Assembly (NCBI GenBank): GCA_021776735.1
Contig: JAJFFH010000024.1
Location: 87,744 to 151,743, forward strand
Reading direction: 5' to 3'
From: Planctomycetota bacterium
GTDB taxonomy: Bacteria; Planctomycetota; PLA2
DNA: 64,000 nt
The stretch's first letter is position 1, and every line of letters begins with the position of its first letter. The notes beneath the pieces are model-generated. The model was not told the origin of the DNA. It was given only the letters and a program-made list of their open reading frames with translations, and made no database searches. The translations under genes and the position numbers were made by a program. Below, one piece after another: positions 5,572 to 63,373 of this stretch.

Positions 5572-6427
5572 CCGGCATGGCCGGGCTGACCGGACCCGCG
5601 TAGGTGTTGAGAAACAGCGCGCCTTCCGCGCGTTCGCGCAAGAGCACGGCCAGCGTCTTCGCGGTGTAGGTCGGCTCGACAAGAAGCCCCGCCGCGCGCG
5701 CGGCTTCCATGGCGGCGTCCACCGCGGGCGTGGTCTCGCCGTACGCGCCTTCGCCCTTCACGACGCGCAGCCGGACGGTCTTGCGCGGCCGGGGCAAGTC
5801 GGGATTGCAGCGCCGCGCCAGACGCGCCGCCCGCCGCGCGCGCCCCTTCAAGCCCGGCGGCGACGGCGCCACGCGCACGGCCACGATCTCGGTCGTCACG
5901 CCGCGCAACATGAAGCCCGCCAGGAGCCCGCTCACGGTCGTTCCGCTACCGAGCGGCACATAGATGCGCTCCGGGACGGGATCGATCTCGAACGCGGCCT
6001 CGACATAGCCGAATGCGCCGCGCGCGGACGCCCCACCGGGCGGGATGATGCGCGTCCCGGGCCTCCAAAGCATCGCCGTCCGTAGCAGGGCGCTCAAAAT
6101 TCCGCCGACCTCCACGATGCGCGCGGCGACTTTGGGAAGCGCGCGGTACGCACCCGTCGGTTGCCCCCGGCTGATGAGGATCACGTCGCAGGGTGCCGGC
6201 GCGTGCACGGCGGTGGCGTAGGCGTGGTGGGCGGAGAGAGTGCTATAGGTCAAGAAGCGTACGGACGGCGATGCCATCAGGAACTGGAGGGCACGCGGCT
6301 TGTTGCCGGCGTAGTTCGGGCAGCAGCGATCCTCGCGCTTGACAAGGAAATCGAGGCCGGCGACCGTCACGGGCTCGACGGGGGTCGGCCGGACGCCGAG
6401 GTCGAGCCGAGCCGCGTTCAGGCGCAT
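5537..6427 (-). CDS. PLP-dependent enzyme of the ACC deaminase / D-cysteine desulfhydrase family
   Basis: Carved from the C-terminal 296 aa of the 930-aa shadow ORF: ...[18 protein letters not shown]... and the Gly-rich PLP loop [17 protein letters not shown]. Start ATG at 6427 (alternative 6442). Converges on and overlaps the queF 3-prime end. Confidence 0.7.
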
Positions 6428-6506
6428 CCCGTTCTGGCGCATTCGGGGGAGGATACACCCGGGTACACTGCCCGCCGTGCGTGTCACGATCGACGATCCG
6501 CCGACG

Positions 6507-6809
6507 ATGAACATCCTCGGCCTTTTTCTGGCCTCCTCCCTGCGCCGCAACCTGATCGAGCGCGGGCGTTCCTGCACGCTGACTGGCGTGCTCGCGATCG
6601 ACGCCGACGGCATGCACGCCGCGGTCCGGTTTGAAAAGGACGGCGTAACCGTGACGCGCCAGGAAGCCGAGCCGCGTACGCGCATCGCCGGGCCGCTGTC
6701 GCTGCTGGTCGGCGCCCTTGTGCGGCCCCGGCTCGGGACGCTGTTGCGCATCAAGGTGCGCGGCAGCCGATTGTTTGCTCTTCGCGCGCTCAGGTTCTTT
6801 GGCGCATGA
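6507..6809 (+). CDS. SCP2 sterol-carrier-like domain protein
   Basis: About 100 aa, MNILGLFLASSLRRNL...GVLAIDADGMHAAVRFEKDG...LRIKVRGSRLFALRALRFFGA. ATGA overlap with the downstream FAD oxidase. Confidence 0.6.
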   Translation: MNILGLFLASSLRRNLIERGRSCTLTGVLAIDADGMHAAVRFEKDGVTVTRQEAEPRTRIAGPLSLLVGALVRPRLGTLLRIKVRGSRLFALRALRFFGA

Positions 6810-8191
6810 GGGCTGCGCTGGTCGATATCTTCGGCACCGAATCGGTGTCGGACGACGGCGCCGATTACGCGGGCGACTGGACCGAGAACGCACCGGCCAT
6901 GCCCGCGTTCGTCGTGCGCGTATCGCGCGAGGAGCAAATCCCGCAACTGCTCGCGCTGGCCAACGAGCGCCGCATCCCGATCACGCCCCGCGTCGCGGGC
7001 ACCAACAGCGGCGGCCTGGCGATTCCATCGGAGGGTGGCATCGTGCTCGAACTGGGCGCGCTTGACTCGGTCGCGATCGACCCCGTGCACATGATCGCGT
7101 GGATCGGGCCCGGCGTGACCTGGGAGCGGCTCAAGGCAGAAACCGCTGCGCATGGTCTCCGGCTGGGGTATCCCCTTGCACCGCCGGACACGTCGGTCCT
7201 TGCGTGCGCGCTGATGGACGGGCTCAGCACGATGTCGCTCTCGCACGGCTCGCTCGGCGACTGGGTGCTCGGCGTCGAGGCGTACCTTGCGGACGGCACG
7301 AAGGTCAAGACCGGGAGCGCGGCCGCGAGTGGCCTGCCGTGGCCCTTGAGCCGAGGTCCCCTGCCGGACCTGACCGGACTGTTCGTCAACTGGCTCGGCA
7401 CGACCGGCATCACCACGCGGCTGGCGCTCACGCTCTGGCCGCTGCGTTCGCACCGGCGGCGCGACATGATTCCGTGCGTCCGCAACGAGGATGCGTTCGA
7501 ACTCATGCGAACGGGCGCACGCACGGGCCTGTTCGACGACATCGCCGGCATCGGCTGGCCGGGTGCGAAGTGGGCCCTCGGTCTCGACGAACTTGGACCG
7601 CGCGACCCCGCGGAACCATCGCAATACGTCATCGCCGACTATGGCGCGGACACCGAGGCGGAGATCGAACTCAAACACAAGCGCCTGGTCGAGCTGGCGC
7701 CGGTCGCACCGGTCCCGGTCGCCGACCTCGTGGCGCTCGCGCCGGAACTCGAGCCGTTCTCGGACCTGCCCACGCGCCTCGATTTCCTCCTGGACCACGA
7801 AGGCGGCGGCCTGACGTGGGTCGGCACCTACGGACCCCTGGACAAGCTCGAAGAGGGCGCGGCGCTGGGCGAGGCGATTCTCGCGGAGGCGGGCTTCCCC
7901 CCGCTGACTGTGACTCGGCCGATGAAGGGCGGCCACTACGCCGTCCTGCGCATGATCGAGCGGTTCGACCGCCGCAGCGAGGAAGAGACGGCCCGGGTGC
8001 GAAAGGTCAATATCAAGGTCGGGCGTGCACTGATGGAACTCGGATACGTCCCCTACAAGTGCCCGGCGGTGCTGTACGACGAGCTCTTCGCGCGCCTCGA
8101 CCCGGGCTTTTTGAAGCTCCTCAACACCGTGAAGCGCGCGGTCGATCCCAACAACATTTTGAGTCCCGCCCGCTGGCGCTTCGACCGGTAG
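6806..8191 (+). CDS. FAD-linked oxidase (PCMH-type FAD-binding domain; GlcD/alkyl-DHAP-synthase-like)
   Basis: 461 aa with the FAD-binding segment ITPRVAGTNSGGLAIPSEGGIVLEL. Confidence 0.8.
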   Translation: MRAALVDIFGTESVSDDGADYAGDWTENAPAMPAFVVRVSREEQIPQLLALANERRIPITPRVAGTNSGGLAIPSEGGIVLELGALDSVAIDPVHMIAWIGPGVTWERLKAETAAHGLRLGYPLAPPDTSVLACALMDGLSTMSLSHGSLGDWVLGVEAYLADGTKVKTGSAAASGLPWPLSRGPLPDLTGLFVNWLGTTGITTRLALTLWPLRSHRRRDMIPCVRNEDAFELMRTGARTGLFDDIAGIGWPGAKWALGLDELGPRDPAEPSQYVIADYGADTEAEIELKHKRLVELAPVAPVPVADLVALAPELEPFSDLPTRLDFLLDHEGGGLTWVGTYGPLDKLEEGAALGEAILAEAGFPPLTVTRPMKGGHYAVLRMIERFDRRSEEETARVRKVNIKVGRALMELGYVPYKCPAVLYDELFARLDPGFLKLLNTVKRAVDPNNILSPARWRFDR

Positions 8192-11813: not shown

Positions 11814-11830
11814 GCGAGAGAGGTTACGAA

Positions 11831-11850
11831 AATCGCCGTCCGTACGCTGC
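11831..11850 (+). repeat. copy of the dispersed motif (AATCGCCGTCCGTACGCTGC; core at 11832-11843; GCGTAC-flank subfamily)
   Basis: Exact 12-mer in the divergent region between the saccharopine DH start and the Sel1 gene start (11883). Confidence 0.8.
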
Positions 11851-12737: not shown

Positions 12738-12760
12738 ACCGCCGTCCGAATCCCGAAGGG

Positions 12761-12780
12761 AGCAAACGGACGGCGATGTT
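12761..12780 (+). repeat. copy of the dispersed motif (AGCAAACGGACGGCGATGTT; core at 12766-12777)
   Basis: Exact 12-mer with the GCAAAC flank, between the convergent 3-prime ends of the Sel1 gene and the 12802..13635 gene. Flanked by short complementary runs (CCCGAA ... TTCGGG). Confidence 0.8.
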
Positions 12781-13635: not shown

Positions 13636-13760
13636 GCGTGCACGATGCGTGCGGCGTGTCACGCCGCGCTCATCGTCGTGTCAAAAACGACGGTTGGGTT
13701 TGGAACAACTACGAAAACCTGCAAACGAGGCGCTCGCGCGTCGGGGCTACGTCGATACAA

Positions 13761-13780
13761 AGCATCGCCGTCCGTACGCT
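13761..13780 (+). repeat. copy of the dispersed motif (AGCATCGCCGTCCGTACGCT; core at 13764-13775)
   Basis: Exact 12-mer, GCGTAC-flank subfamily. About 130 bp upstream of the 12802..13635 gene start. Flanked by AAAGC ... GCTTT. Confidence 0.8.
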
Positions 13781-15960: not shown

Positions 15961-16512
15961 TTACTGCTCGCTCTCGATCACGGGCCTCAGCCGGTGCGCG
16001 AGAATCTCGCGCGCGTGCCGAAACCGCTGTTTCGCCGTGCGTTCCGAGACATCGAGCGCCTCGGCCACCTTGGCGTAGGTCAGTTCGTGGTGTGCGCGCA
16101 ACAAAAACGTCGCGCGCAAGTCCGGCGGCAGCCGCTCCACCTCGGCGCGCACGCGCGTGTCGAGGTCGCGGGCCGCCACCGCGTCGACTGCATCGCCGTC
16201 CGTCAGCTCCCCGTCGAGGCGTTCGACAGGACGACGCCGGCGCAACCGATCCCGAAACAGATTCGTCGCCACGCGAAAAAGCCACGCTCCCAGGGTTCCG
16301 TTGTGAACGTGGAGCCGGTGTTGGTGACGCAGAAAACGTACGAAGGTCTCTTGGCAAAGTTCGTCCGCTGCCCACGGATCGCCGGTCAGGCGGGCCAGGT
16401 AGCCGTGGATTTTTCGTCCATACTCCTGGTAGATCGCTTCGAATCCGTCCGCCATGCACCCCGTAAGACGCGGGGGACGCGTGATTCGGGAAGGGAATCC
16501 CGGCGGATTCAT
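15961..16512 (-). CDS. RNA polymerase ECF-type sigma factor (sigma-70 family, regions 2 and 4)
   Basis: FEAIYQEYGRKIHGYLARLTGD...DELCQETFVRFLRHQ (region 2) and LTYAKVAEALDVSERTAKQRFRHAREIL (region 4 HTH). The start at 16512 gives an ATGA overlap with the upstream gene; alternative start MADGF at 16455. Confidence 0.85.
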   Translation of the reverse strand: MNPPGFPSRITRPPRLTGCMADGFEAIYQEYGRKIHGYLARLTGDPWAADELCQETFVRFLRHQHRLHVHNGTLGAWLFRVATNLFRDRLRRRRPVERLDGELTDGDAVDAVAARDLDTRVRAEVERLPPDLRATFLLRAHHELTYAKVAEALDVSERTAKQRFRHAREILAHRLRPVIESEQ

Positions 16513-17640: not shown

Positions 17641-17725
17641 CGGTCGCGGCCTCCGGGAACGTTCGCGCGTGTTCGGCATCGCGCGTGCCCGTGCTTCGGC
17701 GCGTCGAACCCCTTCTGAGGCAGTC

Positions 17726-17744
17726 GACGGACGGCGATGTTTGC
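17726..17744 (+). repeat. copy of the dispersed motif (GACGGACGGCGATGTTTGC; core at 17727-17738)
   Basis: Exact 12-mer at the left edge of a 760-bp ORF-free region. Confidence 0.8.
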
Positions 17745-18403
17745 TCGCTTCGGGGGGGATCCCCACATTTGAGCTGCGGGATTTCGCGCCTGCGCGAGGC
17801 CGAGTCCCGACCCCCGCGTCCACGGCTTCAACAAGCCCGGAAAAATAAGTTGTACCCGCCGGCGAGTGCCGCCCCGCCAGCGGATACAGGAGGTAAGGAG
17901 GGTCGAGGGTGTTTCGCTGCCCACCCGGCGTTGCGCCGCGTAGGCATGGGAACGTTATCCCTGGTTTCGCGAGGCGCAAACCAATGGGACCAAAAAGGAC
18001 GAATTGGGACCAAAGGACCGGAGTCGGCGTTAGTCTCGGCCTTAGGGCGGCTCCGTCAGCTCTGCGACAGCCGCTTTTGCGTTCGGAATAGATTACGCCC
18101 GCGGCTCGCTGGCCGATTCTCTGTCGCACCCTCGCGTTAGGCTTTCGTTAGCCTCGAAGATCGAGGCTGATCGCCGTTCCCGTGTTCACCACACGCGGTT
18201 CGAATGCTCAGGGTTCGATCGGCGGGGGCAGAGGCACCCACGCACGACCCATGCGGCGACCGCGGCGCTGGCGCATCCGAGGTGCGCGAGCGCGCACCGC
18301 CCTACCGGTGCAGGCCGGTGCGAGCACGCGGGAGCGAACCACCCCGGTAATGGCAACTGGACCGCCCTGATCGCGGTCGCGCCCACTTCCTACAGCTGCC
18401 AGA

Positions 18404-23000: not shown

Positions 23001-24086
23001 ATGACGAGTTCTGTCGCCGTGCCGCCCCCCGCCGATACCGCCCAGCCGGACTGCGAGTTCCGGCGCCTTGACCCCACGGATCCGGCGTGGCAGGCCTTGC
23101 TCACAACCCACCCCCTCGCGGAGTCGGTGCGGCCGATGTGGGAAGAGGTCGCCGGGTGGGAAGCGATTCGGATCGGGAAGTTCACGGACGGCGATGTCCA
23201 GGCCGGAATCCAGTTCCACACCCGCGGCCTCCCCGGCCTGCCGTGGCGCCTCGCACGCATCACACAACTCCTGCCCACACCGATCGCGGACCGATCGCAG
23301 GCCTGCACGGCAGCGCTCCTGGCCGAAGCCGAACGCGTTGCGTGGGAACGCCGGGTCGTGGAAATCGAGTTCCGGGCGCACATCCCGGTGCCCGACATGA
23401 TCGACGCCCACGGGTTCCACTCGGGCATCGGCAAAGGGCTCGACCAGGCCGGTTACACGCAGGTTCCGGAGTTCAACGGCACCTACTTCGTCGATATTGA
23501 CCGCAGCGACGAGGAGCTCCTCCTCTCGTTCAAGAAAACCACGCGCAGCGAGGTCCGCCGCCCGAAGAAGAAGGGTTGCCGAATCGAAAGGGGCGACGAA
23601 TCCCTGCTTGAAACCCTGTTCGACGGGTACGCCGCTATGGGCGCGCGCAAGGGTCTCGGCGAAACAACGTTGCCGCGCCCGTTCGTGGTGGATCACATGA
23701 AACCGCTGGTACAGGCGGGCCATGTGCACCTGTACTACGCTGCGTACGGCGACGACATCAGCGACATCGCCCTGATCGATGCCCTCGGCACACCGATCAA
23801 CATGCAGTCGGTACGCCTGACCGCCAGCCTGTCGAACAAGTACCCGTCAGCCGCGCGCCGCCTCCACTACGTCATCATGACGATGCTCCGCGACGAGGGC
23901 AAAAAGCTGTACGACCTCGGCGGCAGCCCGGCGCCGGTCCCGATCCCCGGCCATCCGAACTACGGCGTCTGGCAGCACAAGTACCACTACAAGGGCACCT
24001 ACGTCCCGTACATCCCCCGCTTTCGCAAGGCACGAAGCCGCTTCGGTGCCAACCTCGCCCGAACCGTCCGCTTCGTCCGCGACTGA
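23001..24086 (+). CDS. FemAB-family (GNAT-fold aminoacyl-transferase-like) protein, copy 1
   Basis: 361 aa with the FemAB-like C-terminal half (...LHYVIMTMLRDEGKKLYDLGG...). Proteins of this kind are described next to exosortase/PEP-CTERM polysaccharide loci. Contains an in-frame copy of the dispersed 12-mer (FTDGDVQ). Confidence 0.65.
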   Translation: MTSSVAVPPPADTAQPDCEFRRLDPTDPAWQALLTTHPLAESVRPMWEEVAGWEAIRIGKFTDGDVQAGIQFHTRGLPGLPWRLARITQLLPTPIADRSQACTAALLAEAERVAWERRVVEIEFRAHIPVPDMIDAHGFHSGIGKGLDQAGYTQVPEFNGTYFVDIDRSDEELLLSFKKTTRSEVRRPKKKGCRIERGDESLLETLFDGYAAMGARKGLGETTLPRPFVVDHMKPLVQAGHVHLYYAAYGDDISDIALIDALGTPINMQSVRLTASLSNKYPSAARRLHYVIMTMLRDEGKKLYDLGGSPAPVPIPGHPNYGVWQHKYHYKGTYVPYIPRFRKARSRFGANLARTVRFVRD

Positions 24087-24140: not shown

Positions 24141-24381
24141 CCACGGACGGCGATGTGTGCCCGAACCGCACATCCGCGCGGCAGGATTGCCTGGCACCAA
24201 TCAGGCTCGCAGTGCGGCAGGATTACATGGCACCGTCCCGGCTGACAGTGCAGCACGATTACGTGGCACCAATCAAGGCCGGGTGGTCGGCGTGCGTAAC
24301 CGATTGTCGCTAAACGGCTTGCGACGAATTCGCGCCGCTGCGGGCGGCGTCCCCGGGACATCGCCGTCCGTTTGCTTGCTG
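24141..24381 (+). repeat. composite intergenic repeat element A: inverted copies of the dispersed motif (24143-24154 and 24360-24371) flanking three 36-bp direct repeats (24178-24285) that each contain TGGCACC
   Basis: Repeat units GCGGCAGGATTGCCTGGCACCAATCAGGCTCGCAGT / GCGGCAGGATTACATGGCACCGTCCCGGCTGACAGT / GCAGCACGATTACGTGGCACCAATCAAGGCCGGGTG. TGGCAC at 24192, 24228 and 24264, exactly 36 bp apart. Confidence 0.75.
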
Positions 24382-24445
24382 CAGGATCCGCCGAGCCAAT
24401 GCCGCGGGCTAAGGCGTGCGCGGTGCTAGAACCGATGGAAGATTC

Positions 24446-26435: not shown

Positions 26436-26650
26436 AGACGGACGGCGATGCCTCCGGCTCCGGGGTCAGTCGAACGCGTCCGTCGGCGTCGAGGCCGCCG
26501 AGTACGGGTGCCAGGTAATCCTGCTGCCATCACCGGCCGGCAACAGCAGGATCCCCTGGCACCGTACCGGCAGCACGGCAGCAGGATCCCCTGGCACCGT
26601 ACCTCTGGCACCGTACCTCGTGGCACCGTACCTCGCCGTCCGTACGCTCC
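26436..26650 (+). repeat. composite intergenic repeat element B: inverted copies of the dispersed motif (26438-26449 and variant 26633-26644) flanking an imperfect inverted repeat (26506-26528 / 26546-26568) and a 15-bp x3 tandem array of TGGCACCGTACCTC(G)
   Basis: GGGTGCCAGGTAATCCTGCTGCC ... CAGCAGGATCCCCTGGCACCGTACC. TGGCAC at 26557, 26592, 26606 and 26621. The unit GCAGCAGGATNNCCTGGCACC is shared with element A. Confidence 0.75.
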
Positions 26651-27896: not shown

Positions 27897-29120
27897 ATGC
27901 GCGTCCTGACCTTTACCACCCTCTACCCGAACGGCGCCATGCCGAACCACGGCATGTTCGTGCGCAAGCGTATGGAAGCCGTCGCGCGGCGCCCGGGCGT
28001 CGAGGTGGTGGTCGTGGCGCCGGTGCCGTCCGCACCGAGGCTGCCGGGCTGGTCACGCGCCAAAGTGTTTTCCAGCGTGCCCAAGGCCGAAGAGATCGGC
28101 GGACTCTCCGTGCACCACCCGCGCTTCTTGTCGCTCCCCGGCGAGTGGGCCCGTCTCAAGCCGCGCTGGATCGCCCGTGGCGCCTGGGCATGCGTCCAGG
28201 CCTTGCATCGCGCGCAGCCGTTTGACATCGTCGATGCGCACTTTGCCCGCCCCGACGGCGCGGCCGCGGCGGAAATCGCGCGCCGCATCGGCCTGCCGCT
28301 CGTGCTGAGCGTGCGAGGTTCCGACATCCACCGCGACCTCGAACGCCCGCGCACAAGGCCGCTCGTCCTCGCGACGCTCCGCGCGGCGGCGTCCGTCATC
28401 TCGGTGGCGCAACCGCTGACCGACAAGATGATCGCCGCCGGGATCGCCGCGGACAAGATCGCCACGATCCCGAACGGCATCGATCTCGCCCGCTGGTCGC
28501 ACGTGGACCGCGACGCGGCGCGCGCCGAGCACGGAGTTGCGGACCAGCGCCGCATCGTCCTGAGCGTCGCCGCGATGAAGCCCGTGAAGGGCCACGACAC
28601 GTTGATCGAAGCCTTCGCGACGTTGGGTACGGACGGCGATATCTCCGACACGGAGCTGTGGCTCGCGGGCGCCGGTCCGTTGCACGACGAACTCCGGCGC
28701 CGCGTGGCGCAACTCGGCCTCACAAAACGCGTGCGTTTTCTGGGTGCCGTGCCGCACGACAAGCTGCCCTCGCTGTATGCCGCCGCGGACATCTTCGCGC
28801 TGCCGAGCCGCAACGAGGGCTGCCCGAACGTCGTGCTGGAGGCGCTTGCCTCCGGCTGTCCGGTCGCCGCAACGGCGGTCGGACACGTACCGCACATGGT
28901 GCGCAACCGCGAGAACGGCCTCGTTGTTCCCGCGGACGATCCCCGCGCCTTCGCTCTTGCGTTGCGCGCACTTCTGAAAACATCGCCGTCACGGACTGTA
29001 GTCCGAGCCACCGTGGCCGACTGCACCTGGGACGACGTCGCCGCACGGGTAGCCGGCGTCTTCCAAGGCGCCCTGGACCTGAAACCGAACACGGAAACGA
29101 GCATCTCCCAATGCGGGTAA
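27897..29120 (+). CDS. glycosyltransferase, GT4 (group 1) family
   Basis: 407 aa. C-terminal GT-B segment ...FLGAVPHDKLPSLYAAADIFALPSRNEGCPNVVLEALASGCPVAATAVG... Contains an in-frame copy of the 12-mer (GTDGDIS). Confidence 0.8.
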   Translation: MRVLTFTTLYPNGAMPNHGMFVRKRMEAVARRPGVEVVVVAPVPSAPRLPGWSRAKVFSSVPKAEEIGGLSVHHPRFLSLPGEWARLKPRWIARGAWACVQALHRAQPFDIVDAHFARPDGAAAAEIARRIGLPLVLSVRGSDIHRDLERPRTRPLVLATLRAAASVISVAQPLTDKMIAAGIAADKIATIPNGIDLARWSHVDRDAARAEHGVADQRRIVLSVAAMKPVKGHDTLIEAFATLGTDGDISDTELWLAGAGPLHDELRRRVAQLGLTKRVRFLGAVPHDKLPSLYAAADIFALPSRNEGCPNVVLEALASGCPVAATAVGHVPHMVRNRENGLVVPADDPRAFALALRALLKTSPSRTVVRATVADCTWDDVAARVAGVFQGALDLKPNTETSISQCG

Positions 29121-37937: not shown

Positions 37938-38921
37938 ATGTCCATCGAAATCGACACGTCGTACTCGTCTTCATCCTCCTCGGGCTCCTCGCCGTCTGGG
38001 TCCTCCGGCTCCTCCGGCTCCTCCGGATCCCCCGGTCCGGGCGCGTCGATGCCCGGTGCACCGCCGATCCCGGCACATGCACTCACGATCGACGTCGAGG
38101 ACTGGTATCACGTCGAAAACCTGACCCCGGTCTGCCCGCCCGACCGCTGGGACAGCTACGAGGCCCGCCTGCCGGCCAACCTCGACCGCATGCTGGATCT
38201 TTTCGACGAAGCGGGCGTCAAGACGACGTGCTTCGTGCTGGGCCGCGCCGCGGAGCGCCACCCGGAAATCGTCGGCAAAATCGTCGCCCGCGGCCACGAA
38301 CTCGCATGCCACGGCTGGTCGCACGAGCTGATCTACCGCCAGACACCCGCGGAGTTCCGCGAGGAGACGATCCGCGCCAAGAAATTCCTCGAGGACCTCG
38401 CAGGCATCGCCGTCCTTGGCTACCGCGCATCGACCTTCTCCATCGTCGAGAAGACCCTGTGGGCGCTCGACATCCTGGCTGAGGCGGGGTTTGAATACGA
38501 CTCGTCAATCGCTCCGTTGCACCACGATCGGTATGGCATCCCGGACTCGCCGAAGCAGCCTCATCGAAGGGAGCTGACGGACGGCGATATCTTGGAGTTT
38601 CCGGTCTGCACGATGCATGGATTGCGCCGCACCTTCCCGCTCGGCGGTGGGTTTTTCCGGTTGTTCCCGGTGTCGTGGGCGCGCAAGAGCATCGAAGAGC
38701 ACGCCGCGCGCGGACAGAGCGCGATGGTGTATCTGCACCCGTGGGAGATCGATCCCGGCCAGCCGCGCGTAGACGGCCTCAAGTGGAGCCACCGCTTTCG
38801 GCATTACGCGCGGCTCGGCGCCACGATGGGCAAGCTCCGGCGCCTTCTGAAGGGCCACCGCTGGGACACGATGGCCTCGATTCTGGGGCTCGCGGGAGAC
38901 GCCGCCGAGGGCAACGCCTAA
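37938..38921 (+). CDS. polysaccharide deacetylase family protein of the subfamily described at exosortase (PEP-CTERM) loci
   Basis: LTIDVEDWYHVENL..., CHGWSHELIYRQT..., LGYRASTF..., YLHPWEIDP. Ser/Gly-rich N-terminus encoded by GGCTCCTCC repeats. Contains an in-frame copy of the 12-mer (LTDGDIL). Start uncertain (37938 or 38047). Confidence 0.8.
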   Translation: MSIEIDTSYSSSSSSGSSPSGSSGSSGSSGSPGPGASMPGAPPIPAHALTIDVEDWYHVENLTPVCPPDRWDSYEARLPANLDRMLDLFDEAGVKTTCFVLGRAAERHPEIVGKIVARGHELACHGWSHELIYRQTPAEFREETIRAKKFLEDLAGIAVLGYRASTFSIVEKTLWALDILAEAGFEYDSSIAPLHHDRYGIPDSPKQPHRRELTDGDILEFPVCTMHGLRRTFPLGGGFFRLFPVSWARKSIEEHAARGQSAMVYLHPWEIDPGQPRVDGLKWSHRFRHYARLGATMGKLRRLLKGHRWDTMASILGLAGDAAEGNA

Positions 38922-43650: not shown

Positions 43651-44534
43651 GCGCGGCGCGACGCGGCATCATCCTGGCTGGGGGCTCCGGCACACGGCTG
43701 CACCCGATCACCAAGGCGACGAGCAAGCAGCTCCTGCCGGTGTACGACAAGCCGATGGTGTACTACCCGCTGTCCACGTTGATGCTCGCCGGGATTCGCG
43801 AGATCCTCGTAATCACCACCCCGCGCGACAGCGAGGCGTTTCAAACGCTGCTCGGCGACGGCGCGGAATGGGGCCTTGAGCTGCGCTACGCGACGCAGCC
43901 CAACCCCGGCGGACTCGCGCAGGCGTTCTTGATCGACGAGACGTTCGTCGAGGGTCGTTCGAGCGCGCTGGTCCTCGGCGACAACATCTTCTTCGGACAC
44001 GGGCTGGCGAAACGACTCCAAGCCGCCAATGCGCACGACGGCGGTGCGACGGTGTTCGGCTACTACGTCAAGGATCCGCAGCGGTACGGCGTCGTCGAAC
44101 TGGACCGCGACGGCAACGCGCTCTCGATCGAAGAGAAACCCGAAAGCCCGAAGTCGCACTACGCCGTCACAGGCCTCTACTTCTACGACGACACGGTGCT
44201 CGACATCGCCCGCAACCTGAAGCCGAGCGCGCGCGGTGAACTCGAAATCACCGACGTCAACGCGCGTTACCTCGAACGCGGCGCACTGCGCGTCGAAACG
44301 CTGGGCCGCGGCATGGCATGGCTCGACACCGGCACCGTCGATTCGCTGCTGCAGGCGACGAACTTCATCGAGACCATCGAAAGCCGGCAGGGACTAAAAA
44401 TCGCCTGCCCGGAAGAGATCGCGTGGCGGATGAACTACATCGACGATCGCGGACTGGAAACGCTCGCCGACAAACTCAAGAAGACGGTGTACGGCGAGTA
44501 CCTGAGAGAAATCCTCAGGGACGGACGGCGATGA
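43647..44534 (+). CDS. rfbA: glucose-1-phosphate thymidylyltransferase
   Basis: [50 protein letters not shown]... GTG start overlapping the rfbB stop. The last codons (...RDGRR*) lie inside a copy of the 12-mer. Confidence 0.9.
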
Positions 44535-45067: not shown

Positions 45068-45079
45068 ATCCGCGCCCAG

Positions 45080-45102
45080 GACATCGCCGTCCGTTTGCTG
45101 CC
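45080..45102 (+). repeat. copy of the dispersed motif (GACATCGCCGTCCGTTTGCTGCC; core at 45083-45094)
   Basis: Exact 12-mer with the GCAAAC flank, 13 bp after the rfbC stop. Confidence 0.8.
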
Positions 45103-47390: not shown

Positions 47391-48542
47391 ATGCGCTTTC
47401 CGCAAGTCGTCCCCGAATACCCGGTGTGGACCCCGTCCCGCGCAGCCGCCCATCCGCAATGGCGTGGACTGGCTGAGCGAACGGAAGCGGACGGACGGCG
47501 ATGTTCCTTTGCGCGCACGGGGATCTTTCTCGGTTTGAAGGCGCTCGGACTCCAGTCCGGCGACGAAGTCCTTTTGCCCGCGTGGCACTGCGCCGCACTG
47601 GTCGTCCCGGTCGCCAAGGCCGGTTTCACCCCGATTTTCTACGATCTGGACGAAAACGGCCGCCTCGACCCGGCCCGCCTGGAGGCTGCCTGGACCTCCA
47701 AGACCCGCGCGGTCCTCGCGGTTCATCTCTTTGGGTTCGCCGAGGACCTCGCGCCGGTCCGGGCGCTGTGCGACGCACGCAACGGCTTCCTGGTCGAGGA
47801 CGCCACGCAGGCGTACTACCTGGCCCAGGACCCGGTCGGCGATCTCGTTTTGGTCAGTCCGTACAAATTTCTCCCCGCCGCCGAGGGCGGCGAATACTGG
47901 CTCAAGGACGGCTTCGGGCCGGCCCCCGCCCCCCCCGAAACCACTCTCACTGGCACCCTCAAGGCGTTCCTCAAGGACGCCTACCACATTGGCGAGGCAT
48001 CGTTCGCCGCGCGCCGTGGAGGGCTGTGGCAGTGGCTTTTCGGCGCCGTGATCCGGCTGCGCTACCTCGGCCGGCCCTCGCCGTTTCAGGTACACAGCAA
48101 GGCCCCTGCGAATGCGGTCCCGCCCACCGCGGATGACCTACCCACGGCGGACGACCTGATGGAAAAGTGGCACGTGGCGCCGCGTGCGCCCGCGAAGTGG
48201 TCGGCACGGCTGGTCCGACGTGCGCCGCCGGGTGCGGGTGCCGAGGAGCGTCGGGCGAACTACGCGTGGTTTGCGGAGCGGCTGGAGGGCGTATCGGCGC
48301 TGCCTGACGACGTGGTGCCGTACATGCTGCCGCTGTTTCGCGACGAGCCTGGACCGGTGCTCGCCCGCCTGCGGCGCGCGTCGATCCAGTTTCAGCGCTA
48401 CGGCCTGCCGCCTTGGCCGGAAATGGACTTCGCGGCCTTCCCGAATGCCGCCCGGCTGGCCCACACCGGGTTCCAGATTCCGATCCACCAGAACGTGGAC
48501 GCTGCGGCCCGGGAGCGGATTCTGGGCGCTCTGAACGGCTGA
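47391..48542 (+). CDS. DegT/DnrJ/EryC1/StrS-family PLP-dependent aminotransferase (second, divergent copy)
   Basis: ...GDEVLLPAWHCAALVVPV..., ...GFLVEDATQAY... Start uncertain: 47391 gives 383 aa, and the N-terminal codons contain a copy of the 12-mer (ADGRRC). Confidence 0.65.
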   Translation: MRFPQVVPEYPVWTPSRAAAHPQWRGLAERTEADGRRCSFARTGIFLGLKALGLQSGDEVLLPAWHCAALVVPVAKAGFTPIFYDLDENGRLDPARLEAAWTSKTRAVLAVHLFGFAEDLAPVRALCDARNGFLVEDATQAYYLAQDPVGDLVLVSPYKFLPAAEGGEYWLKDGFGPAPAPPETTLTGTLKAFLKDAYHIGEASFAARRGGLWQWLFGAVIRLRYLGRPSPFQVHSKAPANAVPPTADDLPTADDLMEKWHVAPRAPAKWSARLVRRAPPGAGAEERRANYAWFAERLEGVSALPDDVVPYMLPLFRDEPGPVLARLRRASIQFQRYGLPPWPEMDFAAFPNAARLAHTGFQIPIHQNVDAAARERILGALNG

Positions 48543-50245: not shown

Positions 50246-51508
50246 ATGCGAATCAGACTCATTCTCGTGTTGATATCGGCTGTAGTGCTCCCGGCATGCC
50301 AGCGCGCCGGAAGTGACGCCCCTCGCTTGATCGCCCGCTCGCAAGTCGTGCTCCTGAGCCCGCCCACTGAATTCATCACGGGCTCGCTGGACGGTTGGCT
50401 GTTCTCGGCACAGGGGGGGGCCACAACGATTGAGTTTTCGTATACGCCCGGAGGTCAGGAAGATACCGATCTCGTCGTCCCGGGCGTGACGCTCCTGCTC
50501 GCACAGTCCGACAGTCACGATGGCGTGCGGTATCTCTTGGTTGGTACGCTTGACGCGGCTGAACGGTACTCACTCCATCGCTACCACGACACGTCGGGCG
50601 ACGGGGCGCCCGACGCGGGCACGCAGTCCCTTCTGTTCACTTCGGTCGAGCCGATGTACGTGACCTATCTCTCGCGCACCGCCGCCGGTACGACGTATCT
50701 CCTTGACAAGCGCTGTCAAGACATACTGGTCGCGACGGACAGCGACGGCGACGCCTGGCCGGACCAGATCGCGGCGGCGCCGTTCGCCCGATCCGCGGAC
50801 CACGAAACGCTCCTCGATGCCGGATTCATCCGGATGCTGTCGAACGGCAACCTGCTGGCCATGATCAACGCGCGAATGGAGCGCTTTCATTCGCCCCACG
50901 ACATCTTCAGGGACACGGACGGCGACCTGGTGGCGGATGTCCATGTCGTCGGTCCCGAGGGGGACAAGCCGATTTACTTCTCCGCCTTTTTGTCGGTCGG
51001 ACAGGACGAACTCACCGTCGCCGCCCAGGTGGGCAACGTCGTCGAGGTCTGGGAACTCGACTCGTCCGGCGCGACGAACGTTCTGCTTGGTTCCGCCACG
51101 GTGGCTTCGAACGGACGTGCCACTATCTCACTCACGCGGACACTCGCCGCGGGCGACGAGATCGGCATCAAGTACGCATCGTCAACCGAGATCGCGATCA
51201 CGAACACCGTGATCGCGAAGATCCCTCAAGTGCTGGACGTCGAGCCGAAGACGGCCCTGACCAATCAGAATTCCACGATAGTGCTCACGGGCCAGGACTT
51301 TACAACGACGATGACCGTCACGTTGCGGGAAATGGACGGCACGACCCACACCCTCACGGTTCAGTACATCGACACAACGACGGTCAACGTCACCGTCCCC
51401 AGCCTCACCACCGAGGGATCGGTAGCAATCTACGCCCACGAACCCGGTCAAGATCTGGAAGAATTCGGAGTCCGCGGACGAACGATCCAAGTCTGCAACC
51501 CGCAGTAA
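50246..51508 (+). CDS. lipoprotein with C-terminal Ig-like (IPT/TIG-like) beta domain
   Basis: MRIRLILVLISAVVLPAC lipobox. Thr/Val-rich beta-strand C-terminus (...TIVLTGQDFTTTMTVTL...). Confidence 0.5.
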   Translation: MRIRLILVLISAVVLPACQRAGSDAPRLIARSQVVLLSPPTEFITGSLDGWLFSAQGGATTIEFSYTPGGQEDTDLVVPGVTLLLAQSDSHDGVRYLLVGTLDAAERYSLHRYHDTSGDGAPDAGTQSLLFTSVEPMYVTYLSRTAAGTTYLLDKRCQDILVATDSDGDAWPDQIAAAPFARSADHETLLDAGFIRMLSNGNLLAMINARMERFHSPHDIFRDTDGDLVADVHVVGPEGDKPIYFSAFLSVGQDELTVAAQVGNVVEVWELDSSGATNVLLGSATVASNGRATISLTRTLAAGDEIGIKYASSTEIAITNTVIAKIPQVLDVEPKTALTNQNSTIVLTGQDFTTTMTVTLREMDGTTHTLTVQYIDTTTVNVTVPSLTTEGSVAIYAHEPGQDLEEFGVRGRTIQVCNPQ

Positions 51509-54052: not shown

Positions 54053-54077
54053 GGACATCGCCGTCCGTACGCTCTCT
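54053..54077 (+). repeat. copy of the dispersed motif (GGGACATCGCCGTCCGTACGCTCTC; core at 54057-54068)
   Basis: Exact 12-mer, GCGTAC-flank subfamily, between the lipoprotein gene start and the TPR gene end. Confidence 0.8.
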
Positions 54078-54083
54078 CCGTCC

Positions 54084-59010: not shown

Positions 59011-59138
59011 CCCGAGCCTCCTTGACGGGCCTCCTTGCGGGCCTCCTTGAGGGGGGTCACTTTACTCGATTCTCCCGGTTGACGAATAGCGTCATTGGGG
59101 AGAACCCCGTGGCTACCTATAATCTGGCGCAGGCCGGT

Positions 59139-60413
59139 ATGTCGTCTCAGTACGTCCTTGTTGTGTCCTCGGGCAAGCTGCGGCGGGAAGTTGCCGTCGG
59201 AGAAGAGCCGCTCGTCGCGGGGCGCGGCCCCACGTCGAATCTGCGGCTGCCCGACGACTACTGCTCCCGCGAGCACGCCCGGTTCGTGAGCCGGGGGAGC
59301 GATCTGTACGTCGAGGATGTCGGCGCCAGGAACGGCGTGTTCGTGAACGACGAGCGGGTACTCCTCGACAAAAAGCTGACGGACGGCGATGAAGTCCGCC
59401 TTGGACGGACCCAGATCATTGTCCGCCGCGCGGCCGCGCCCCCGCCCCCCGACCCGACTACCGAGGGCGATCTGTCCGACACCGCGACCAAGGATCTCGG
59501 GCCGGAGGGCATTCAGTTCGTCGATCCGGCCGTGGAACTCGGGTTTACCCTGACGCGCCTCGTCGCGGTCTCGGGCATGGGCCTCCTGTTCGAGGCCAAG
59601 GACGTCAAATCCGGGCACAAGGTCGCGTTCAAGATCCTGCGGCCCGACCGCGCGACCGAAGCCAACGTGGCCCGCGCCGTCGAAGAGGCCAAGTCGCTGT
59701 CGAGCATCCACCACGAAAACATCGTGCGGATCCTTTCGACGGGGCGCATGCGCAACGGCGAGTCGTTCCTCGTCATGAAGTACGTCGATGGTCCGACCGC
59801 GACGCAACTCGGCAAGGCCGGCCGCCTCTGGATTCCGGAGGCGCTCAAGATCGCTTCGGACACCTGTTCTGCGCTCCACGCGGTGCACACGCGCGGCATG
59901 GTCCACCGCGACGTCAAGCCGAGCAACGTCATGATCGAGGAAGCGACGCTGCGGATCGTCCTGATCGACTTCTCGCTCGCACTGACGGAAGCCGGCGGCC
60001 TCGCCAGCGCGCCTGCCGGGACGATCATTTTTTGTGCGCCCGAGCAGGTGCAGCCACGCGCCGGAGACGACGCGATGCAGCCGGTGGTCGATGTCTACGG
60101 ACTCGGCGGTACGCTGTACTTCATGCTGACCGGCTCGCACCCGTTCCGCGGCCAGAGCACGATGGAAATCCAGGAAAAGAAACTCAGCGCGCCGCTGCCC
60201 ACGGTCAAGACCCGGCTGAAAGGGCGAGCGATCCCCGAGCTCGACGGGATCATCCACCACTGCATGCAGCCGGATCCCGCGAACCGTCCGCCGAGCATGA
60301 TGGATGTGAAAAAGGCCATCGACCGCGCCCGCCGGCGCTACCCCGCACCGAAGTTCACCGACGCGAACAAGTCGGCCACGCCGTCTCCCGTGCGGGGCAG
60401 GGCGAAGCGTTGA
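59139..60413 (+). CDS. FHA-domain-containing Ser/Thr protein kinase
   Basis: FHA (YVLVVSSGKLRREVAVGEEPLVAGRGPTSNLRL...SREHARFVS...NGVFVNDERV) then Hanks kinase (VAFKIL, HRDVKPSNVM, IDFSLA, APE). The tool's start at 59022 is also possible. Confidence 0.8.
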   Translation: MSSQYVLVVSSGKLRREVAVGEEPLVAGRGPTSNLRLPDDYCSREHARFVSRGSDLYVEDVGARNGVFVNDERVLLDKKLTDGDEVRLGRTQIIVRRAAAPPPPDPTTEGDLSDTATKDLGPEGIQFVDPAVELGFTLTRLVAVSGMGLLFEAKDVKSGHKVAFKILRPDRATEANVARAVEEAKSLSSIHHENIVRILSTGRMRNGESFLVMKYVDGPTATQLGKAGRLWIPEALKIASDTCSALHAVHTRGMVHRDVKPSNVMIEEATLRIVLIDFSLALTEAGGLASAPAGTIIFCAPEQVQPRAGDDAMQPVVDVYGLGGTLYFMLTGSHPFRGQSTMEIQEKKLSAPLPTVKTRLKGRAIPELDGIIHHCMQPDPANRPPSMMDVKKAIDRARRRYPAPKFTDANKSATPSPVRGRAKR

Positions 60414-61606: not shown

Positions 61607-61808
61607 CCCCGCAATTCCAACGACCGCGGACCTGTGGATCGTCGCAACTCGATGTGATCAAGCAGCTTACATCAGGCACGCACCGTCACGGCTTCGTCAC
61701 CAATTGCTGCTCGGCGCTGTATTCTCATCCTTTTGATCCCGGCTCGGTATGGCTGTCAGGCGCACGTGCGATCAACGGCGCGGCTCCAAACCGCCCGTGG
61801 CCCTCGGG

Positions 61809-62219
61809 CTATACGAAGGTCGCGGCGTAGAGCCAGACGCCGGTTGCGACCGTGGCGCAGAACAGGGCGATCAGGATTCGGCCGCGGCGGCGGTGCGCGT
61901 CGCGCTCGTCGAAAACCCGCTTGCCGCGGGCGATCTGGTAGGTCCAGAGCAGCGTGGCCGGGATCGCGAAGGTGAGGTGAATCGCGAGGGCCAGCGCGTC
62001 CAGGGGCGGCGGCGTGGCCTCCAAACGGACCTGAATCTCGAAGGCGACAACGGCAAACAGGAAGACGACGTAGCACGCCGTCATGACCCGCGCGTGCCTC
62101 TTGACCTGACCGCGTCGCACCAGCCGCACGGCCCATAGGAGCACGGGCAGCATCACGACCAAGACGACCAGGAACAGATCCACGAAGAACCCGGCCTCGG
62201 TACCGAAAAAGCCGCTCAC
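61809..62219 (-). CDS. DUF420-like small integral membrane protein
   Basis: 136 aa, 4 TM. 4-bp overlap with the thiI start. Confidence 0.55.
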   Translation of the reverse strand: MSGFFGTEAGFFVDLFLVVLVVMLPVLLWAVRLVRRGQVKRHARVMTACYVVFLFAVVAFEIQVRLEATPPPLDALALAIHLTFAIPATLLWTYQIARGKRVFDERDAHRRRGRILIALFCATVATGVWLYAATFV

Positions 62220-63373
62220 AGGATCAAGTCCTCGCTTGTGGCGGCCGCGACAGCCTCTTCGACCAACGCCGCGACGTCGAGATCGGCCTCAGCGACATCG
62301 CCGTCCGTACGCGTTGTCTTGGTGGCAGGCCGATTCGGCACAAAGAGCTGACAGCAGTCCTGATCGGGCCGAATCGAGATGTCGAAGGTCCCGATTCGTC
62401 GGGCTACGTCGATGATTTCCCGCTTGTCGGTGCCGATCAGGGGCCGGAGGACCGGAATCTGGGCGACCGCATCGACCGTGGAGAGGTTTTCGAGGGTCTG
62501 GGAGGCCACCTGGCCGAGGCTTTCGCCGGTCACGAGGGCGCCGCAGCGCCGGCCGCGGGCGATCCGCTCGGCGATTCTGAGCATGAAGCGCCGGTACAGG
62601 ACGACGCGAAGGGCTTCCGGGCAGTGGAGCCGGATTTCTCGCTGGATCGGAGCGAGCGGAACCATGTGGAGGCGGGTCCGGTACTGCCAGCGGGTCAGCG
62701 TCTCGGCCAGATCGCGGGCTTTTTCCTGCGTCGTGCGGTCCACGAGCGGGAAGCTGTGGAAGTGGACCAGATCGACGTGGCAGCCCCGGTTGATCATGCG
62801 CCACGCGGCCACGGGCGAGTCGATCCCGCCACTCATGAGCGCCGCGACGCGCCCCCCGGTCCCGACCGGCAGACCGCCGGGACCCTCGACCCTGTCCAGC
62901 CCCACGAGCACCTCGTCCTTGAGTACGGAGACGTGATAGTCGTACGCGGCGCCCTTGAGTTGCACGCCACGACCGGTCTCCCGCACCACGACGGCACCGA
63001 TATCACGGTCCGCCTCCATCGACAGCAACGGAAACGTTTTGTCGACCCGCCGCGTGGAGATGCGAAACGTGCCCGGCGGCCGGGCGGCCAAATCCGCCGA
63101 GATAGACCGCCCCACGGCCTCCATATCGCGCGGCAGCCGCTCGAGCCGCAGCACGTACGAAACCCCGCATACCTGCGCCAGCCGGCGCTGGATCACGGCC
63201 GGGTCGACGTCCGCCTCGATCGTGACGAGCACGCGGCTCATGTACGACCGGGTCTCACACGGCCCGATTTCGGCCAGCGCCCGCCGTGCATTGTTCCGCA
63301 GCGCCCGCTCAAAGCGGCTCCGGTTGCCCCCTTTGAGCGCCAGCTCGTGAAAATGAAGCCCGAATGTCGCCAC
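62216..63373 (-). CDS. thiI: tRNA 4-thiouridine(8) synthase ThiI (THUMP + PP-loop ATPase, no rhodanese domain)
   Basis: ...HFHELALKGGNRSRFE..., PP-loop LMSGGIDSPVAAW. C-terminal region contains an in-frame copy of the 12-mer (KTTRTDGDVAE). Confidence 0.85.
   Translation of the reverse strand: MATFGLHFHELALKGGNRSRFERALRNNARRALAEIGPCETRSYMSRVLVTIEADVDPAVIQRRLAQVCGVSYVLRLERLPRDMEAVGRSISADLAARPPGTFRISTRRVDKTFPLLSMEADRDIGAVVVRETGRGVQLKGAAYDYHVSVLKDEVLVGLDRVEGPGGLPVGTGGRVAALMSGGIDSPVAAWRMINRGCHVDLVHFHSFPLVDRTTQEKARDLAETLTRWQYRTRLHMVPLAPIQREIRLHCPEALRVVLYRRFMLRIAERIARGRRCGALVTGESLGQVASQTLENLSTVDAVAQIPVLRPLIGTDKREIIDVARRIGTFDISIRPDQDCCQLFVPNRPATKTTRTDGDVAEADLDVAALVEEAVAAATSEDLIL

Follow-up and report, generated by a model that had tools for sequence, protein, structure and literature searches.

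A recurrent 12-nucleotide word in a Planctomycetota genome, its filtering by coding constraints and its likeness to DNA uptake sequences

The locus and its recurrent word

The window analysed here, a 64-kb stretch of a Planctomycetota genome, encodes among others a PLP-dependent enzyme, an ECF sigma factor, a GT4 glycosyltransferase, a polysaccharide deacetylase, an FHA-kinase and ThiI. The 12-mer ACGGACGGCGAT (reverse complement ATCGCCGTCCGT) occurs in it as 23 exact copies, against 0.05 expected from dinucleotide-preserving shuffles (about 400 times chance). None of 100 shuffles contained more than two copies, and only four one-mismatch variants are present in the window. The exact copies and one of these variants are listed in table 1; all host genes of the in-gene copies have Pfam support.

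Table 1. Copies of the 12-mer in the window and one variant encoding TDGD.
Location	Position	Strand	Context
intergenic	903..914	-	3 nt past stop of PEMT-like gene 457-900(+); convergent gene pair
intergenic	4095..4106	-	36 nt downstream of gene 4142-5242(-), upstream of trkA-like 2565-3929(-); strand as both
in-gene	6072..6083	-	PLP-dependent enzyme 5537-6442(-); sense, R-T-A-M frame
in-gene	6261..6272	+	PLP enzyme 5537-6442(-), within PALP domain; antisense S-P-S-V
leader, saccharopine dehydrogenase gene	11832..11843	-	probably 18 nt upstream of ATG 11813
intergenic	12766..12777	+	convergent genes; 29 nt past stop at 12737
intergenic	13764..13775	-	between 12802-13662(-) and 14006-15493(-); strand as both genes
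in-gene	16192..16203	-	ECF sigma factor 15961-16455(-); sense E-L-TDGD-A-V, residues 85-88
gene-poor stretch 17641-18403	17727..17738	+	no supported coding frame there
in-gene	23184..23195	+	FemAB-like gene 23019-24086(+); sense K-F-TDGD-V-Q
intergenic	24143..24154	+	57 nt past FemAB-like stop; strand as flanking genes
intergenic	24360..24371	-	upstream of asparagine synthase 24416-26404(+); strand opposite to flanking genes
intergenic	26438..26449	+	34 nt past asparagine synthase stop; strand as genes
in-gene	28629..28640	+	GT4 glycosyltransferase 27897-29120(+); sense L-G-TDGD-I-S, residues 245-248
in-gene	32214..32225	+	large PcRGLX-like protein 30540-33713(-); antisense I-A-V-R
in-gene	38577..38588	+	XrtA-system polysaccharide deacetylase 38049-38921(+); sense E-L-TDGD-I-L, residues 177-180
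rfbA 3' end	44521..44532	+	last four rfbA codons, D-G-R-R; sense
intergenic	45083..45094	-	16 nt past rfbC stop, opposite strand; partial direct copy CGGACGGC precedes
in-gene	47491..47502	+	DegT-like gene 47391-48542(+), N-terminal part; sense D-G-R-R-C, residues 34-38
one-mismatch variant ACGGACGGCGAC	50915..50926	+	gene 50348-51508(+); encodes window's seventh TDGD
intergenic	54057..54068	-	16 nt past stop of 1247-aa TPR protein gene; strand as genes
in-gene	59379..59390	+	FHA-kinase 59079-60413(+); sense K-L-TDGD-E-V, residues 101-104
in-gene	62297..62308	-	ThiI 62216-63373(-); sense T-R-TDGD-V-A, residues 356-359
intergenic	63455..63466	+	divergent pair: ThiI / ABC-transporter binding-protein gene starting at 63520

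The density is about one copy per 2.8 kb (approx. 0.36 per kb), and the spacing along the window is compatible with random scatter (KS P = 0.70). Twelve copies lie on the plus strand and 11 on the minus strand; GC skew is uniformly negative throughout, such that this split falls in a single skew regime, and the word has no strand polarity in the window. Intergenic DNA, 10.5 per cent of the window, holds 12 of the 23 copies (P = 8e-7), a per-base density nine times that of genes. The other 11 are in coding sequences, where about 0.03 would be expected.

Conservation extends into the flanks: among the 23 copies, 16-19 have AGC at positions -5 to -3, 20 have G at +12 and 16 have T at +13. The 5' side is purine-rich and the 3' side pyrimidine-rich, and the extended consensus in unconstrained DNA is rrAGCrwACGGACGGCGATGTyy. 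The full DNA word is asymmetric and about 20 bp long, with the 12-mer as its invariant core.

At the rfbA/rfbC junction, the 44521 copy and the next two bases supply both the rfbC ATG (44531-44533) and the rfbA TGA (44532-44534), confirming the original prediction for this site. The copy at 12766..12777 pairs with CCGCCGTCCG (12739-12748), part of the word in inverted orientation, to form a hairpin. A terminator-like hairpin (54045-54029) comes after the copy at 54057..54068; terminator-like sites in the window do not coincide with copies of the word. If the saccharopine dehydrogenase starts instead at ATG 11855, its leader copy becomes codons 5-8 and reads TDGD.

Reading frame and codon usage

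The original prediction listed nine in-gene copies. Seven have the coordinates, peptides and frames that it gave (6072, RTAM; 23184, 38577, 59379 and 62297, TDGD; 44521, DGRR-stop; 47491, DGRRC), while the GT4 copy begins at 28629 rather than 28624 and that of the large protein at 32214 rather than 32254. Two more had been missed, at 16192 (sense, TDGD) and at 6261 in the PLP enzyme; the latter is antisense, like the large-protein copy, which had been taken as the sole one of that orientation. The corrected tally is 11 in-gene copies, nine sense and two antisense, with six in the TDGD frame.

The TDGD reading of the word is ACG-GAC-GGC-GAT: the second Asp is indeed encoded by GAT, as predicted, but the first by GAC. 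Nor is GAT a rare codon, as had been supposed; it is a minor one, with 258 GAT against 894 GAC in the window genes (22%; 16-43% across host genes).

Two codon-aware nulls were used. An independent-codon model, based on codon usage alone, predicts a proportion of 0.589 (59%) for the TDGD frame, 0.291 for the antisense IAVR frame and 0.664 (66%) for all sense frames. The same skew is seen in near-words of the window's own genes (two to four mismatches), of which 0.39-0.50 are in the TDGD frame and 0.55-0.61 are sense. The TDGD-frame bias (6/11) is significant against a naive null of 1/6 (P = 0.005) but not against these two nulls (P = 0.73 and 0.22); likewise, the sense bias (9/11) gives P = 0.033 against 0.5 but P = 0.07-0.23 against the codon-aware nulls. 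The original observation is confirmed in part. The TDGD frame prevails because it is the one best tolerated by the codon usage of the genome, and both excesses are by-products of codon usage, not signs of mRNA function. This agrees with the frame-constrained fixation proposed initially.

Host proteins

In the window proteome (18,854 residues), TDGD occurs seven times, against 0.34 expected, a 20-fold excess. Six of the seven have the exact spelling of the word, for which the prior probability is about 5 per cent; the seventh differs from it by a single base. In addition, all six DGD peptides ending in GAT are copies of the word. These data support the original view that the recurring unit is the DNA word and not the TDGD peptide. 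The peptide itself fits a beta turn.

TDGD was found in none of 80 ThiI orthologues, which align without a gap at the site, in none of 29 homologues of the polysaccharide deacetylase, where the copy lies at the turn of a beta hairpin, and in neither of two homologues of the FemAB-like protein, which have EAGE or EGDR there without an indel. The GT4 copy lies in a variable loop, gapped in alignments to solved GT4 structures; that of the ECF sigma factor is in the linker from region 2 (8-75) to region 4 (102-150), and that of the DegT-like protein is immediately ahead of the segment alignable to a paralogue.

In the FHA-kinase, the 59379 copy lies on the conserved xDGD motif of the FHA domain, which counts in part against the original view. 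The orthologues have ADGD, SDGD and, in one case, even TDGD, in other codons; their DNA at this site (GCGGACGGCGAC, TCGGACGGCGAC and ACGGACGGGGAC) is one or two point changes from the word. Only these changes were needed there, which shows an origin by substitution. Copies of the word arise by point substitution, not insertion. Of the two modes envisaged initially for unrelated proteins, substitution by TDGD is borne out, whereas insertion is needed in no case. Within genes, the word survives only where the protein permits: in the frame with ordinary codons, in variable turns and linkers, on pre-existing xDGD motifs and in the first or last few codons.

Lineage distribution

In 80 loci from other genomes, and in relatives sharing 66-70% protein identity, no copy of ACGGACGGCGAT was found. 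L202, a relative at 79% identity, has the exact word once, at its orthologous rfbA/rfbC junction; the core GACGGCGAT occurs there eight times within 11.5 kb, the background being 0.04 per kb. On these sequence comparisons, the word is specific to this Planctomycetota lineage. A further 5 kb of the host genome beyond the window contains no copy; extrapolation from the 64 kb plus 5 kb suggests that the word may be spread chromosome-wide on both strands.

Alternative explanations

It is improbable that the word acts in RNA, as a site for an RNA-binding protein or small RNA under selection for sense orientation. Besides the nine sense copies in genes, five of the seven copies flanked by co-oriented genes run in the direction of transcription, and seven intergenic copies are no more than 60 nt downstream of a stop codon. 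Overall, 14 of the 18 copies with a clear local transcription direction are sense; this excess is weak and only marginal when compared with a mixed null of about 0.58, and 23 copies are too few to settle it. Against the mRNA-level role suggested originally, codon-aware nulls alone give 56-66% sense in genes, antisense copies exist both in genes (6261, 32214) and between them (24360, 45083), and positions in the transcript are inconsistent, some copies being in a leader, others deep in coding sequence or at a 3' end. The flanks show neither structure nor covariation (no better folding of matched than of mismatched flanks, P = 0.67, 0.95, 0.46), Rfam gave no match, and invariance at 12 bases is more than an RNA site would require. 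Even less credible is a functional TDGD protein motif, shared by chance and identical in DNA through codon bias; the conserved xDGD of the FHA-kinase, with its one TDGD orthologue, and the deacetylase hairpin fit it, Asp-Gly being a common turn, but the peptide is absent from the ThiI, deacetylase and FemAB homologues, a single spelling dominates, 12 copies are intergenic and five in-gene copies are antisense or read in a different frame. The protein-motif explanation is refuted in general and holds only for the FHA site, as pre-adaptation. An origin of the copies as remnants of small mobile repeats of REP or MITE type would account for the high copy number and intergenic enrichment; it is very improbable, being contradicted by the indel-free alignments, by conservation limited to about 20 bp with no terminal repeats or palindrome, and by FHA sites of relatives that differ from the word by point changes.

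A chromosome-wide DNA-binding protein other than an uptake receptor, or a sequence-specific repair bias, is a possible though rather unlikely source of the word. Candidates include a nucleoid or segregation factor, a recombination hotspot and a mark of self DNA against a nuclease. The features of the word (asymmetry, a length of about 20 bp, an invariant core, dispersal on both strands and restriction to a single lineage) fit such a source as well as they fit uptake. Chi and KOPS/FtsK-orienting sequences are likewise short exact words, overrepresented genome-wide and read as DNA, but they are of 5-8 nt and strongly co-oriented with replication, whereas ACGGACGGCGAT has 12 nt and is unpolarized under uniform GC skew. 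Nucleoid and segregation sites (parS, SlmA and Noc binding sites, matS) number tens of copies, against about one word per 3 kb here. A regulon operator is unlikely because 11 copies are deep in genes and most intergenic copies (seven of 12) lie at 3' ends. The cyanobacterial HIP1 (GCGATCGC) is also a lineage-specific word, roughly one per kb and present in genes, but it is an 8-nt palindrome, whereas the present word is asymmetric and of 12 nt or longer.

Likeness to DNA uptake sequences

The Neisseriaceae DUS is a 12-mer (AT-DUS, ATGCCGTCTGAA) bound by the minor pilin ComP, with a density of roughly one per kb; the Pasteurellaceae USS has a 9-mer core, AAGTGCGGT, with extended flanks. About half of DUS and USS are in terminators, often as inverted pairs. 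Like ACGGACGGCGAT, the DUS combines an exact 12-nt core and weaker flanks with extreme overrepresentation, equal strand use and intergenic enrichment, and has lineage-specific variants, L202 here showing only a 9-10-nt core apart from the junction copy. The USS shares the asymmetric core with a flanking consensus, many in-gene copies with strong reading-frame bias, and enrichment of the encoded peptides in the proteome. In-gene DUS are limited to frames with compatible codons and to residues of low conservation (PMC2817400), and most in-gene USS of A. pleuropneumoniae are in coding orientation (PMC2817400), as found here.

There are also differences. The present host belongs to another phylum than that of the DUS (Planctomycetota, with 66% GC), the density is lower (approx. 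0.36 per kb), and absence from relatives at 66-70% protein identity makes the word far narrower than the family-wide DUS. Copies are not arranged as inverted pairs in terminators, in contrast to DUS and USS; the only inverted pair is partial (12739-12777). The flanks are purine/pyrimidine-rich instead of AT tracts, and peptide enrichment is 20-fold, measured in 18,854 residues, against about twofold for USS. GCCGTC, contained in both ATCGCCGTCCGT and the DUS, is probably a coincidence. No competence genes that could serve this putative uptake word are encoded within the 64-kb window.

On balance, we favour, with some reserve, the view that this lineage-specific word, about 20 bp long, accumulates by a DUS/USS-like drive at the DNA level and is filtered by coding constraints. 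The force accumulating exact copies would act on the DNA sequence and would most likely be of the uptake-sequence kind: a competence machinery may prefer word-bearing DNA, and we propose that recombination would then keep re-importing word-bearing alleles. The filtering of frames by codon usage is a behaviour already known for bacterial DNA uptake sequences; in USS and DUS, reading frames track codon preference and poorly conserved residues (PMC2817400; bioRxiv 10.1101/2025.10.24.684340).

Abundance and context of the word

The 12-mer ACGGACGGCGAT (hereafter the word) has 23 exact copies in the 64-kb window, 12 on the plus and 11 on the minus strand, versus 0.05 expected from dinucleotide-preserving shuffles. 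This is a 400-fold overrepresentation in the window, and only four sites differ from the word by one mismatch. Alignment of the 23 copies shows an invariant core within a weaker surrounding consensus (A at -5 in 17/23, G at -4 in 19/23, C at -3 in 16/23, G at +12 in 20/23 and T at +13 in 16/23), with a purine-rich 5' and a pyrimidine-rich 3' flank. The 12 intergenic copies give the consensus rrAGCrwACGGACGGCGATGTyy. The window has 28 occurrences of a shorter core, GGACGGCGAT. Conservation is weaker in the first two bases of the word than in its 3' part, GGACGGCGATG (25 copies).

The copies are concentrated between genes: intergenic DNA makes up 10.5 per cent of the window and holds 12 of the 23 (1.79 per kb versus 0.19 per kb in genes, P = 8e-7). 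Their spacing fits random scatter across the 64 kb (KS P = 0.70), and the adjoining 5 kb beyond the window contain no copy. The positions of individual copies, variants and neighbouring features are compiled in the table.

Coordinates of word copies, variants and neighbouring features (window positions, except the last row)
Feature	Position (strand)	Observation
Copy in PLP enzyme	6072
Second copy in PLP enzyme, within its PALP domain	6261	antisense; absent from the original prediction
Copy in ECF sigma factor	16192	sense, TDGD frame; absent from the original prediction
Copy in GT4	28629
Copy in large PcRGLX-like protein	32214
Copy in rfbA		sense, D-G-R-R; last four codons
Copy in DegT-2 (gene 47391–48542, +)	47491	sense, D-G-R-R; residues 34–38
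Intergenic copy	11832	probably within a 5' leader
Intergenic copy with partial inverted copy	12739–12777	CCGCCGTCCG lies 17 nt upstream of exact copy 12766; hairpin of -28.6 kcal/mol between convergent genes; only arrangement in the window like a DUS inverted-pair terminator
Copy with partial direct self-repeat	45083 (45060–45094, -)	preceded by CGGACGGC, agcaaA, CGGACGGC
One-mismatch variant (...GAC) in TIG-domain protein gene	50915–50926 (+)	sole non-word TDGD of the window; a proto-copy, or else a copy that has decayed
Two-mismatch variant CGGGACGGCGATG, four copies	9389, 35056, 41526, 52818	purine-rich 5' and pyrimidine-rich 3' flanks, as for the word
Region without supported gene, about 0.8 kb	17641–18403	one word copy (17727)
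Strongest terminator-like hairpin of the window	17888–17851 (-)	16 pairs, then a T-run; within 17641–18403
c-di-GMP-I riboswitch RF01051	33886–33978 (-)	sole match of the Rfam scan, 61.5 bits, E = 1.3e-9; unrelated to the word
Large PcRGLX-like protein gene	30540–33713/33836 (-)	directly downstream of the riboswitch; XrtA/PEP-CTERM-type exopolysaccharide locus
Two tandem FHA-domain Ser/Thr kinase genes	59079–61606	adjoin ThiI, a DUF420 gene and two TPR protein genes
rfbA-stop/rfbC-start in the closest relative (L202; JGI 3300023283, Ga0255745_1002652)	7066–7077	same 12-mer and flanks, GGGACGGACGGCGATGAACGTCGAG; the more distant locus L330 differs at the junction

Copies within genes

Gene calls came from a codon model that had been trained on the window itself, and were checked against Pfam and against independent calls on Logan contigs from the same organism (SRR15505515). 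Eleven copies lie in genes: six read T-D-G-D, two D-G-R-R and one R-T-A-M in the sense direction, and two antisense copies give I-A-V-R and S-P-S-V. Intergenic DNA accounts for the remaining 12. The DegT-2 copy counts as in-gene if the gene starts at 47391, a start backed by the Pfam offset and by collinear alignment with a neighbouring 383-aa paralogue.

The original prediction had listed nine in-gene copies, eight of them sense, an observation that is partly confirmed, with corrections. Seven of its coordinates hold and two do not: it had placed the GT4 copy at 28624 and that of the large protein at 32254. With the two added copies, one of which is a second antisense copy where a single one had been reported, the sense tally becomes 9 of 11. 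The word does, as proposed, carry both the rfbA stop and the rfbC start, the ATG at 44531–44533 being the rfbC start and overlapping the rfbA TGA. The idea that the ATG in the word generally starts translation was considered and rejected: it holds for rfbC only, and no other copy gives a start codon.

The proteins of the window, 18,854 residues in all, contain the tetrapeptide TDGD (Thr-Asp-Gly-Asp) seven times versus 0.34 expected from amino-acid composition, a 20-fold excess, and its permuted control peptides occur 0–1 times each in the window proteome. The exact word spells six of the seven, and the seventh, at 50915, differs by GAC for GAT alone. From the codon usage of the window, the prior for this spelling is about 5 per cent (0.46 x 0.78 x 0.62 x 0.22). 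Six of the 19 DGD tripeptides end in GAT, and these six coincide with the word copies. GAT, which had been called a rare Asp codon, is a minor one (22% of Asp codons) but not rare.

TDGD is present in 0/80 ThiI orthologues from other genomes, which typically have ADVE or SQAE at the site and show no alignment gap there; in 0/29 deacetylase homologues, in which only the Gly is nearly invariant; and in 0/2 detectable homologues of the FemAB-like protein, which have EAGE and EGDR. Only at the xDGD site of the FHA-kinase do orthologues without the word keep the peptide in the same place. There, three syntenic orthologues read L-A-DGD-E-V, L-S-DGD-E-V and L-T-DGD-E-V, spelt GCGGACGGCGAC, TCGGACGGCGAC and ACGGACGGGGAC, respectively. 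Since they share xDGD, a conserved domain motif sat one or two point changes from the word, and in this genome one change toward the word was synonymous and introduced the minor GAT codon. The xDGD turn has become a word copy in the first of the two tandem FHA kinases only, the second being without DGD, DGE or EGD. The FHA-kinase/ThiI block is syntenic across Planctomycetota MAGs (loci L002–L004 and L330).

In the deacetylase, residues 177–180 are predicted to form a turn between strands 172–176 and 179–183 (AlphaFold model, pLDDT 93.7). The corresponding site of the closest relative, L202, is GTC CGG GAC GGC GAG (V-R-D-G-E); if this state resembles the ancestral one, the word here would have needed the non-synonymous changes R-to-T and E-to-D. 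In GT4 the word falls in a loop which, when aligned to solved structures, is variable and contains gaps; in the ECF sigma factor it falls in the linker between regions 2 and 4. In rfbA it encodes the last four residues; alignments to solved RmlA structures stop at residue 290–293 of 295, which puts these residues at the limit of the conserved part or past it.

It is thus strongly confirmed that the DNA word, not the peptide, recurs, as originally predicted: the orthologue and spelling evidence supports pressure on the DNA sequence. Unrelated proteins had been thought to take up TDGD by insertion or substitution. Substitution at tolerant or pre-adapted sites is what we observe; insertion is not, with no indels in ThiI, FHA-kinase or FemAB.

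Reading frame and orientation

The frame distribution was compared with two codon-aware nulls. Codons drawn independently from the window's own usage, over six frames, give shares of 0.589 for TDGD, 0.291 for antisense I-A-V-R, 0.068 for R-T-A and about 0.02 or less for each of the other three, with 0.664 sense overall. Near-words with 2, 3 and 4 mismatches, counted in window genes, are in the TDGD frame in proportions of 0.50, 0.43 and 0.39, and sense in 0.61, 0.56 and 0.55. Against these nulls, 6/11 copies in the TDGD frame have P = 0.73 and 0.22 (versus 0.005 with a naive 1/6 null), and 9/11 sense copies P = 0.23 and 0.07 (versus 0.033 with a null of 0.5). Sense and frame bias are explained by codon usage and protein tolerance, in agreement with the frame-constrained fixation suggested originally. 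The D-G-R-R frame is disfavoured, using the less common GGA and CGA, and both its copies are at gene termini, where constraint is weak. Five of seven copies between same-strand genes are on the transcribed strand and two are not; with the in-gene copies this makes 14/18 sense, a marginal excess that 23 copies are too few to settle.

Uptake sequences have a strong reading-frame bias correlated with codon preference, are located at poorly conserved residues with enrichment of the encoded peptides and, in one species, are mostly in coding orientation when in genes (Findlay and Redfield 2009, PMC2817400; Helsem et al. 2025). The frame and sense bias is by itself ordinary, the expected footprint of a DNA-level word filtered by codons and proteins, and an already known property of uptake-sequence-like words.

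Occurrence in relatives

Among 185,579 species representatives, Planctomycetota MAGs match best; they are syntenic for ThiI and FHA-kinase, with ThiI identity of 60–63%. The word is present in 0/80 fetched loci of species representatives. Relatives at 66–70% protein identity have neither word nor core in the 11–24 kb examined for each, and a de novo k-mer search of relatives L002–L004 and L326–L330 found no convincing word of their own. The closest relative found (L202/L203; JGI 3300023283 and 3300023218) is syntenic, with 79% deacetylase identity, and the sole exact word copy of L202 is at the orthologous rfbA/rfbC junction. The core GACGGCGAT occurs eight times in 11.5 kb of L202 (about 0.7 per kb), with similar pyrimidine-rich 3' flanks, against a background of 0.04 per kb in 339 kb of other GC-rich loci. 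Common descent accounts for part of this enrichment, since some of the core copies occupy the I-A-V sites of the deacetylase and rfbB, where the coding position is orthologous.

A metagenome scan with AGCNNACGGACGGCGATGT gave at least 120 single chance matches, with no multi-copy contig among the matches listed, and a scan of a viral collection with ACGGACGGCGATGT gave single chance matches only. In the literature search, the word turned up in human USP11 papers only, and no paper linking DNA uptake sequences with Planctomycetes was found. Its absence from more distant relatives and the single full copy in L202 make the word appear young and specific to one genus-level lineage.

Possible identities of the word

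Polar chromosome motifs such as Chi and KOPS have a strand bias co-oriented with replication, but the word is split 12:11 although GC skew keeps one sign throughout this single 64-kb window, which argues against a motif of that type. An operator or promoter would fit poorly with 11 copies deep in genes and with 7/12 intergenic copies within 60 nt after a stop codon. A mobile repeat of the REP/MITE type would have been inserted as a palindromic or hairpin block; the host proteins are without indels and the copies show neither palindrome nor hairpin covariation, both of which argue against it. A structured or cis-acting RNA element, the mRNA-level role offered originally on account of the sense orientation, is not supported either: some copies are antisense, folding is no better for matched than for mismatched flanks, no Rfam family overlaps any copy, copies do not coincide with terminator-like sites, and the sense bias is covered by the codon-aware nulls. 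A stem of the purine-rich 5' and pyrimidine-rich 3' flanks was likewise rejected from the flank comparison and the lack of covariation. Terminator-like sites in the window overlap no copy, with neighbours only at 54045 and 13737.

The uptake sequences of Neisseriaceae (DUS) and Pasteurellaceae (USS) are closer. Like them, the word is short, exact and overrepresented by orders of magnitude, is equal in both orientations without replication polarity (in one 64-kb window), and within genes is found in codon-compatible frames at poorly conserved residues. Unlike DUS, it is not located at terminators as inverted pairs, the one partial pair being that at 12739–12777. DUS and USS are shared, with dialects, among related species; here L202/L203 has the core GACGGCGAT with one full word, possibly a dialect based on GACGGCGATG, and relatives at 66–70% identity have neither. 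Pfam detects no competence genes in the 64-kb window. The data would agree as well with a repair bias, or with a site for a dedicated DNA-binding protein that has some other role across the chromosome.

The mechanism with the best support is a DNA drive of the uptake-sequence type combined with a coding filter. Copies come about by base substitution where the protein tolerates it or was pre-adapted, and not through insertion; the drive, by analogy with known uptake sequences, would build them up, and coding constraints act on those inside genes. Filtering by coding constraints is evident; the nature of the drive we infer. We tentatively propose that this uncultured Planctomycetota lineage uses the word as a genuine signal for DNA uptake or self-recognition, a reading to which we give rather less than an even chance.

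To our knowledge, no system of the DUS/USS type is known outside Proteobacteria, and this one, if true, would be the first. The main interest is the word itself, an unreported, 400-fold overrepresented 12-mer that is a candidate signal for DNA uptake or self-recognition in Planctomycetota. Should its role be in uptake, the shorter core of L202 would show uptake specificity being born or extended, sequence-specific transformation would extend beyond Neisseriaceae and Pasteurellaceae, and the 20-fold tetrapeptide excess with the R-to-T and E-to-D changes would represent a young case of words invading proteomes.
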